DNA of 64,000 nucleotides, taken from a virus. The stretch is taken from positions 4,960 to 68,959 of the IMG/VR virus record IMGVR_UViG_3300038463_000277; one strand, 5' to 3'. Below are positions 29,323 to 29,535 of the stretch, one piece after another. The translations under genes and the position numbers were made by a program. Under the pieces are notes generated by a model, which was given only the letters and a program-made list of their open reading frames with translations, did not search any database and had not been told where the DNA came from. The stretch's first letter is position 1, and each line of letters starts with the position of its first letter.

Positions 29323-29535
29323 ATGGCAAAACTTCAAGGCACACCGATTGCGCTACCCGGAATGGAACGGCACGAAGCGGAGCGCGCGGAAGTCGCAGGC
29401 GTCGAACTCGCGGCTGATCTGACCGCGAAGTTACTTCAACCTACCAACATCGAGGCGCGCGCGGGCGCGTTAGAGATGAACTCGCCGCTGTTTCGCGGCA
29501 CGGATGCGAGCCCGCAGACGGAGTTATTCTCATGA
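29323..29535 (+). CDS. 70-aa early protein homologous to a module of the 1393-aa virion protein
   Basis: About 39/60 identity to the segment at 48499-48678; ends QTELFS. Confidence 0.8.
   Translation: MAKLQGTPIALPGMERHEAERAEVAGVELAADLTAKLLQPTNIEARAGALEMNSPLFRGTDASPQTELFS

Follow-up and report, generated by a model that had tools for sequence, protein, structure and literature searches.

A conserved module of about 60 residues encoded twice in a temperate phage genome: a candidate tether to the host sliding clamp

We describe a protein module of about 60 residues that is encoded twice in the 64,000 nucleotides of viral DNA analysed here (the window, bases 4960-68959 of IMG/VR record IMGVR_UViG_3300038463_000277), once as a free-standing protein of 70 amino acids (aa) and once as a segment of a 1393-aa protein. 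Both copies end in a short tail resembling the motif by which bacterial proteins bind the beta sliding clamp, DnaN. From this tail and a modelled complex, we favour the view that the module is a portable tether to the host clamp and give this a probability of about 0.4. The two copies, the large protein and its one recognisable domain are the following.

29323..29535, + strand: open reading frame (ORF) of the free-standing module protein, 70 aa, with the module at residues 10-70 and the C-terminus ...DASPQTELFS
48499..48681, - strand: embedded module copy, residues 809-869 (SLPGME...NSPLFRGTGASPQNEMF), flanked by Pro/Ser/Glu-rich linkers
46924..51105, - strand: 1393-aa multi-domain (polyvalent-type) protein, the final long gene of the minus-strand block of large ORFs
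47584..48444, - strand: ParB-like domain of the same protein, residues 888-1174, beginning 19 residues past the module

The preliminary description of this DNA, made from its letters alone, had proposed that one module is encoded twice at about 39/60 identity, and both this figure and the positions proved correct. BLASTP aligns residues 10-69 of the 70-aa protein with residues 809-869 of the 1393-aa protein (39/61 identical, 43/61 positive, one 1-residue gap, E 2e-21), and a profile of the module, run on the whole genome, finds exactly two copies among three candidates scored, the embedded one at E 1.6e-36 and the 70-aa protein at E 1.9e-35. It had also been suggested that synonymous differences in the NSPLFRGT block imply selection on the protein. 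This is borne out: in a codon alignment of the two copies, six of the eight codons of the block differ and every change is silent, while across the module different codons are used at 19 of the 39 identical residues. By the Nei-Gojobori method, synonymous divergence (dS) is saturated, with 31.8 differences over 45 sites (pS 0.71, dS ~2.15), and non-synonymous divergence (dN) amounts to 37.2 differences over 138 sites (dN 0.33), which gives a dN/dS of ~0.16. Since dS is saturated, this ratio is low and the codon changes are silent, the comparison indicates that the duplication is real and old and that purifying selection acts on both copies. A lack of such selection was examined as an outcome adverse to the proposal and was not found.

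Over the core columns of the module, the nearest relative of the 70-aa protein is P0002 (80%), presumably its orthologue, followed by the large protein of the same genome (66%), and the module of the large protein is in turn closest to the 70-aa protein (66%). A FastTree phylogeny of 153 module segments, computed on 72 trimmed columns after one row with fewer than 50 residues in the trimmed core had been dropped, places the large protein's module within a clade of nine (support 0.83) whose remaining members are all short proteins of 68-165 aa. The topology is suggestive only; it would fit an exchange between free and embedded forms in the lineage of this phage, or co-adaptation of both copies to one target.

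The family to which the module belongs is visible only by exhaustive profile search, since word-indexed protein searches recovered little: near the length of the 70-aa protein only its own cluster and one 76%-identical protein, and at longer lengths three proteins of 1696-1820 aa. A hidden Markov model built from six module sequences and run against 1.84 billion cluster representatives matched 305 of them at E<=1e-3 and 158 at E<=1e-10, and the possibility that the module has no other homologues, likewise examined, does not hold. The 150 matches listed range from 57 to 3509 aa. In the majority of matches the module is internal to polyvalent-type phage proteins of 600-3509 aa, and many others are free forms of 57-140 aa, so that the architectures comprise both long multi-domain proteins and small independent ones. 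Eight module proteins searched against Pfam at E<=10 gave no family for six and sub-threshold zinc-finger matches in one that has a zinc ribbon. PHROGs gave no match to the module, a profile search of the PDB with the module reached a best E-value of 0.54, and Foldseek found no match in the PDB. Judged by sequence, the module is a conserved family without Pfam, PHROG or PDB relative, and we found no description of such a module in the literature.

Matches in genomes, nine loci in all, fall in seven cases in metagenome-assembled genomes (MAGs) of Acidobacteriota (Bryobacteraceae, Acidiferrales, Terriglobia, 'Acidobacteria') and in one case each in a MAG of Dormibacterota and of Verrucomicrobia. 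A host gene family was considered and ruled out: among 301 sampled Acidobacteriota genomes, with at most 20 candidates scored per genome, the module occurs in a single one, the known carrier of a prophage copy. Nine other viral records hold one copy each, eight of them in a frame of 1000-2487 aa and one (G052) as a small form only. The two-copy state was found only in this phage among the viral records examined. Searches by tblastn gave no match for the 70-aa protein in 50,697 phage records, and none at E<=0.01 for the embedded module in 72,556 plasmid records.

Conservation was counted over 154 family sequences. The most invariant residues, F75 (154/154), P73 (153), L74 and E69 (151 each) and G66 (149), lie within the segment AG.ME..SPLF. 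The S-P-L-F columns are kept in 136, 153, 151 and 154 of the 154 sequences, A-G in 136 and 149, the E of M-E in 151, and the L-P-G columns in 133-143 of 147; L-T, P, I, R-G-T and A are further nearly invariant columns. The tail columns comprise P-Q, with Q in 136/154, and [LMI]-F, whose last residue is F in 135 and L in 15. A tail of the form Qxx[LMI][FL] is present in 126 of the 154 and starts seven residues past SPLF in 121; the narrower Qx[DE][LMI][FL] is found in 89, and a variant of the NPx[LMI]F type in 17. The tails of the two window copies are QTELF in the 70-aa protein and QNEMF in the 1393-aa protein.

The position of this motif differs between short and long members. Of the 38 scorable free proteins, none longer than 140 aa, 19 have the final F as their last residue and four more end within three residues of it; the other 15 run on past the motif, some of them probably being fragments. 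In proteins above 140 aa the motif is internal in 101 and four more end within three residues of it, and in the long proteins the tail is followed by positions rich in Pro, Gly, Ala, Ser and Glu. Several small forms begin with a Cys-rich, zinc-ribbon-like segment. One of these (L058, in the complete 58.8-kb record G052) has a frame that ends ...GPQGELF and then a stop, as checked on the DNA, and this free form is located 2.5 kb from a homologue of the replication initiator of the phage studied here.

AlphaFold2 (AF2), run on the 70-aa protein with a 33-row alignment, gives a mean predicted local distance difference test score (pLDDT) of 79.5 and a predicted template modelling score of 0.39, with helices at residues 17-38, 44-53 and 64-67. 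Its pLDDT is 93-94 in helix 1 and ~61 at residues 61-70. The ESM Atlas model of the same protein has a pLDDT of 0.44, no feature match and structural neighbours that are all below the bar for naming. Taking the AF2 model together with the conservation pattern, the module would be a two-helix hairpin that has the invariant AG.ME..SPLFRGT at its centre, LPGME as its cap and LT, I, M and SPLF as its small hydrophobic core, and the tail that follows, ASPQx[E][LMI]F, would be a linear motif of a flexible kind. The low pLDDT of the tail after confident helices, and the 19 of 38 free proteins that end at F, are those of a motif in an exposed, flexible or terminal segment. Terminal placement is typical of clamp-binding motifs.

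The likeness of QxxLF to the beta-clamp-binding motif had been remarked upon in the preliminary description, and it holds, the motif being a conserved column that fits an experimentally validated consensus (PMC12867686). Excerpts of that source give the bacterial clamp-binding consensus as QL[SD]LF and, for the Mor/MuC activators, Qx[D/E][L/M]F and QPDLF; the clamp binding of these activators was demonstrated with two-hybrid tests, with L->A mutants and in transcription assays (PMC12867686). QTELF and QNEMF are pentapeptides of this consensus, in company with the 126 family members that have Qxx[LMI][FL]. The location of the 70-aa gene within an early block of replication and recombination genes is also counted for the clamp reading, as are the purifying selection on both copies and the presumed reliance of the phage on host replication proteins. 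As a separate observation, a second pentapeptide resembling clamp-binding motifs stands at a protein terminus: QGNLF, at residues 6-10 of the product of a 157-aa ORF (39286-39759, +) whose sole family match is a weak one to phrog_27658.

To predict a complex, the 70-aa protein was co-folded with a dimer of DnaN from an acidobacterium, with alignments of 33 and 27 rows respectively. Single runs gave 0.44, 0.33 and 0.42 and the score was 0.42, against 0.01 for the best of three controls, which included one with DnaN replaced. Runs agree in at least 39% of contacts and the partner pLDDT is at least 43. Among 80 solved complexes the mark used for this test is reached by 58, among 110 mismatched pairs by 2, and the verdict returned is 'weak support'. 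The earlier suggestion that the module may be a sliding-clamp binder is thus weakly supported by computation.

Several observations weigh against clamp docking. Scores of 0.60 or less account for only 7 of those 80 solved complexes, plus both passing mismatches, and, unless there was good prior reason for the guess, a pass in this band is wrong in more cases than not. Solved clamp-peptide complexes exist, and the pass, a score with no contacts reported, may reflect memory of the motif. The DnaN employed is moreover a stand-in for that of the host, taken from an acidobacterial MAG with a prophage copy of the module. Nine of the 154 family sequences are without either tail type, and two others, set aside earlier, are without SPLF. 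Acidobacterial DinB proteins end ...KLQLGGSL in five of seven cases, the other two ending differently, so that host clamp-binding motifs are not obviously like QxELF; mimicry of the host DinB clamp motif was rejected on this unlikeness. The main doubt, as the alignment stands, is that conservation of the hairpin exceeds that of the tail: because AG.ME..SPLF is more conserved than the tail (Q 136/154, F 135/154), the primary determinant may lie elsewhere than in the tail.

How the clamp reading would work depends on the proteins that carry the module. In the 1393-aa protein, the ParB-like domain is the sole domain that PHROGs assign (phrog_21 positions 1013-1306, E 1.2e-26; ParB-like phrog_1033 and phrog_4715). 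Pfam HTH_ParB matches segments of the protein at E 0.0012, under the family cut-off, and Pfam gave no family for it at E<=0.01; PHROGs gave no match for the large genes neighbouring it. By tblastn against phage records the protein is matched only through its ParB-like part, by 'hypothetical proteins' of Prochlorococcus phage. Its nearest relative is L013, at locus 5989-7206 of a 31-kb partial record (G004), which is 63% identical over the module and ParB region. This record has syntenic homologues of the integrase and of four other genes, and one module copy was found in it, partial as it is. The first ~45 residues of the 1393-aa protein (50980-51105, -) contain a tandem short repeat, PIDFSDLGGKPV x2; paired (I/L)DF.P motifs likewise open the module-bearing proteins P0003 and P0005 and are a candidate anchoring or packaging signal separate from the module.

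The profile search returned 84 long proteins (>=600 aa), of which 38 were scanned, taken in order of identifier up to a total of 50,000 residues, with P0003-P0005 set aside. Pfam detected GGDEF in two of them and, in single proteins, LPD38, Zeta toxin, DUF3854, 2'-5' RNA ligase, cytidylyltransferase and each of two methyltransferase families. PHROGs gave phrog_21 'portal' in four, the ParB-like phrog_1033 in three and phrog_4715 in one, three DNA-methyltransferase families (in two, one and one), internal virion protein in two, and three labels found only once: minor head protein, DarB-like antirestriction and RNA ligase. By jackhmmer profile, the ParB-like domain is present in 22 of 87 long proteins (the 84 and P0003-P0005) and in two shorter fragments, and lies no more than 55 residues from the module in 16 of these 24 carriers, upstream in 12 and downstream in 4. 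Another conserved domain found by jackhmmer, 'RPGRY', is absent from the 1393-aa protein and accompanies the module in 53 of the 87. In most of the 62 proteins matched it ended at the module or no more than about 130 residues ahead of it; its profile drifted over the module in some sequences, producing negative gaps, and only the count of 53 is used, the distances being set aside. By their architectures, the long carriers look like members of the polyvalent-protein class of Iyer et al. 2017, proteins which these authors regard as injected with the DNA (as related in excerpts of PMC7824862). By analogy with this class, and to go by the PHROG labels of its relatives and by the place of its gene in the minus-strand block, the 1393-aa protein may be a virion protein that is injected.

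If the clamp reading is right, the tail ASPQx[E][LMI]F would be a DnaN-binding motif and the whole a portable interaction module of ~60 residues in phages of mainly Acidobacteriota. Embedded in giant multi-enzyme proteins, the module would dock its carriers onto host clamps on DNA. The free 70-aa protein, supplied by an early-type promoter of its own, would fill the peptide cleft of the clamp or redirect it and, since it has no other domain, would be a competitor or regulator and not an enzyme. A two-stage elaboration, which we consider doubtful, has the injected giant proteins dock on clamps upon entry, after which the free form competes for the clamp, releases it or re-purposes it. Docking may then couple to the adjacent ParB-like DNA-binding domain. 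A dimer of the hairpin, if one forms, could place a tail in each of the two pockets of a clamp ring.

The rival that survives best, unlikely as we think it, gives the module another protein target in the host, which could be RNA polymerase, a nuclease of a defence system, a protein of recombination, a chaperone or a protease. Contact would be made through the invariant hairpin face (AG.ME..SPLFRGT), the hydrophobic tail or both, and the likeness of QxxLF to a clamp motif would be coincidental. This would agree with conservation that is strongest in the hairpin and not in the tail, with a DnaN co-fold that is only weak, and with carriers that are polyvalent proteins of a conflict type, bearing Zeta toxin, DarB-like, methyltransferase and 2'-5' RNA ligase domains. 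No candidate partner has emerged, however; the conserved tail column keeps a fixed spacing and agrees with the clamp-binding consensus that has been validated, and the DnaN-replaced control scored 0.01 against 0.42.

An improbable rival makes the module a signal for assembly, packaging or ejection, which binds capsid, portal or scaffold and loads large proteins into the head, the small free forms being co-packaged or regulating the loading. Nearly all long carriers do look like virion-delivered polyvalent proteins, PHROG labels among the 38 scanned include portal for four, internal virion protein for two and minor head protein for one, and 53 of 87 long proteins have 'RPGRY' along with the module. 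The cassette before the free form is nevertheless of an early type and lies among replication and recombination genes, well away from the late genes; the complete phage G052 has the small zinc-ribbon form only and no long carrier; the position of the module within carriers is highly variable; and the separate N-terminal tandem IDF-type repeats of the large proteins are better anchoring candidates.

It is very unlikely that the tail mimics the C-terminal tail of the host single-stranded DNA-binding protein (SSB), and so recruits or blocks proteins that interact with SSB. The tail does finish on a hydrophobic and an aromatic residue after an acidic or polar stretch, and in 19 of 38 small forms this pair is the very C-terminus, but all eight SSB C-termini taken from five acidobacterial MAGs end ...D[IV]PF where the module has [LMI]F after Qx[E], and a free carboxylate cannot be required because the motif is internal in 101 proteins above 140 aa. 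SSB-tail mimicry was rejected on these two differences. That the module is a passive linker or the remnant of a recent duplication, and the small ORF a non-functional fragment, is scarcely credible and already disfavoured: the low-confidence ESM Atlas model (pLDDT 0.44) and the lack of a known family speak for it, against a dN/dS of ~0.16 with saturated dS, 305 representatives with invariant columns, a promoter-like cassette and ribosome-binding site before the 70-aa gene, and an orthologue at 76% identity elsewhere among recurrent free forms.

The 70-aa gene and its neighbourhood present the following features.

29242..29322, + strand: promoter-like cassette of the 70-aa gene (AAGTTATCTAGACAGG..CACCCTC box, -35/-10-like pair, leader hairpin, Shine-Dalgarno-like AAGGGG)
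25942..26016, + strand: cassette copy ahead of the gene at 26017 (repeat families D1, D5)
26914..26982, + strand: cassette copy before the gene at 26983 (TTGACA-16-TAGACT and leader hairpin; repeat families D2, D3 and D5)
27794..27885, + strand: cassette copy before the DUF932 gene (TAGACA-17-TAAGAT and an identical CCGGATACGAACCGG hairpin)
27886..28737, + strand: DUF932 gene (Pfam PF06067, E 1.7e-43), 0.6 kb upstream of the 70-aa gene in the same early block
29532..29777, + strand: 81-aa ORF whose ATG overlaps the stop of the 70-aa gene (ATGA), without Pfam or PHROG match

The small gene had been credited with an early cassette of its own. The elements are present as sequence: a promoter-like site, TAGACA-17-TACTAT, at 29250-29278, a 5'-leader hairpin, GCCGGATACGAACCGGC, at 29291-29307 (-9 kcal/mol, z -1.7) and, after the hairpin, the ribosome-binding region AAGGGGAAA-N-ATG of the 70-aa gene. 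The same cassette layout occurs four times between 25942 and 29322 (+) of the window, ahead of successive sets of small genes, and the four cassettes would be early promoters; the 70-aa gene would be expressed early, to go by its position beside recombination and replication genes. The AAGTTATCTAGACAGG box is common to the four cassettes and looks like a shared operator of one regulator. The 81-aa ORF is probably translationally coupled to the 70-aa gene; near its C-terminus it carries ...YSTDELF..., a [DE]LF-type sequence without Q. Directly past this ORF, positions 29795-29830 (+) are AT-rich with repeated TAATTA and ATAATTA words (cataattaccccataattatagggtaattatgg). The stretch overlaps a promoter-like site at 29774-29802 and may be an operator or binding site.

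At 29931-30002 (-), 0.4 kb downstream of the pair of small genes, 72 nt match both ends of the transfer-messenger RNA (tmRNA) model RF00023 (33.6 bits, under the gathering score of 47; E 1.4e-11). This may be a remnant of a tmRNA-derived attachment site; the integrase gene, however, is 10 kb distant. ARAGORN found no tRNA or tmRNA gene in the window, and a blastn search of 28000-31000 against phage records gave no match.

The record as a whole is 68,959 bp long and is classed by IMG/VR as having direct terminal repeats and as 100% complete. Its ends (1-185 and 68775-68959, the latter being window positions 63816-64000) place this terminal repeat inside a gene of collagen-like Gly-X-Y repeats. 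The two ends match imperfectly beyond ~80 nt, and the 'direct terminal repeat' may be an assembly overlap in a repetitive gene. Scans with PHROGs and Pfam identified these further genes in the window.

40310-41743, - strand: integrase
31162: RecE-like exonuclease
32826: RecT
34858: Holliday-junction resolvase
25038-25862, - strand: replication initiator
19956-20867: PAPS-reductase-like gene
6293-6988: weak terminase-like match in a 231-aa ORF (E 7.8e-6), beside an unmatched 431-aa ORF

The phage is temperate. It is also very remote from studied phages, because most of its large minus-strand ORFs have no PHROG match; nearly all the large ORFs presumed to be structural, at 351-7650 and 51275-63701 (-) and including those of 869, 357, 431, 607, 1412 and 968 aa, are without PHROG or Pfam match. 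The lineage is a very divergent one, with a terminase that may be split. The putative capsid ORF, so read from sequence and position, has no PHROG match, and an attempt to assign a host through its product gave 92 pattern matches of which none was confirmed. Neither the DnaN C-terminal domain (PF02768) nor a family-A polymerase was found encoded by the phage, and the ORFs of the early block are all of 480 aa or less. Since an initiator, RecE/RecT and a resolvase are present and these other components are not, the phage presumably depends on the host replisome.

Phage proteins that act on a sliding clamp have precedents. The clamp inhibitors of staphylococcal phages and N4 gp8 are reportedly small early polypeptides, proposed or shown to act on the host clamp or its loader. 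Such inhibitors shut off host replication in virulent phages, unlike the temperate phage described here, which seems to rely on the replisome of its host. MuC and Mor of phage Mu are phage proteins which engage the host clamp by short terminal peptides (Qx[D/E][L/M]F and QPDLF, to be compared with QTELF and QNEMF). MuC has two clamp motifs (PMC12867686, in excerpt) and the module two LF-type motifs, SPLF and Qx[E]LF. The module differs from Mor/MuC in having no sequence or domain relation to them, no helix-turn-helix detected, and members inside giant proteins. A Mor/C-type DNA-binding domain was not found in the 70-aa protein by Pfam or PHROGs, nor in its AF2 model, a two-helix hairpin with a tail. 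Clamp binding by MuC is experimental (PMC12867686), whereas that proposed for the module is a weak co-fold pass. In T4 gp33 and gp55, a short hydrophobic C-terminal tail docks on the sliding clamp and so couples another process to replication (PMC7892883, in excerpt); these proteins bind the phage's own gp45 clamp, whereas the present phage has no clamp detectable by PF02768.

In their great length and their several domains, the carriers are like the phage proteins described by Iyer et al. 2017 (PMC5512222), and solo counterparts have been described in that source for other polyvalent domains, for example 2H. The module is unlike the polyvalent LPD domains in having no Pfam match at E 10 and no match in 72,556 plasmid records. 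As for several unrelated domains in one polypeptide, the ParB-like one is the only domain assigned in the 1393-aa protein itself; among its relatives, LPD38, Zeta toxin and methyltransferases are found. The word 'clamp' is absent from the main text of PMC5512222, whose supplements may include an unnamed alignment of the module. If the clamp reading is right, the module would act like known proteins with clamp-binding motifs while standing outside any defined family.

Polyvalent proteins are regarded as entering the cell together with the phage DNA, and clamp docking would be a concrete answer to the question of how they find their sites. Even if it does not bind the clamp, the module is conserved and unannotated and merits definition as a family. 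If it does, the recent finding that a phage factor, Mu MuC, uses the host clamp would extend to another phylum, to effectors that are injected and to domains of a family without a curated model, and the module would provide a natural scaffold for clamp-binding peptides from phages of Acidobacteriota, a group with almost no experimental data. If the two-stage reading were also true, the host sliding clamp would be a general landing pad for phage-delivered effectors, a role undescribed for polyvalent proteins.

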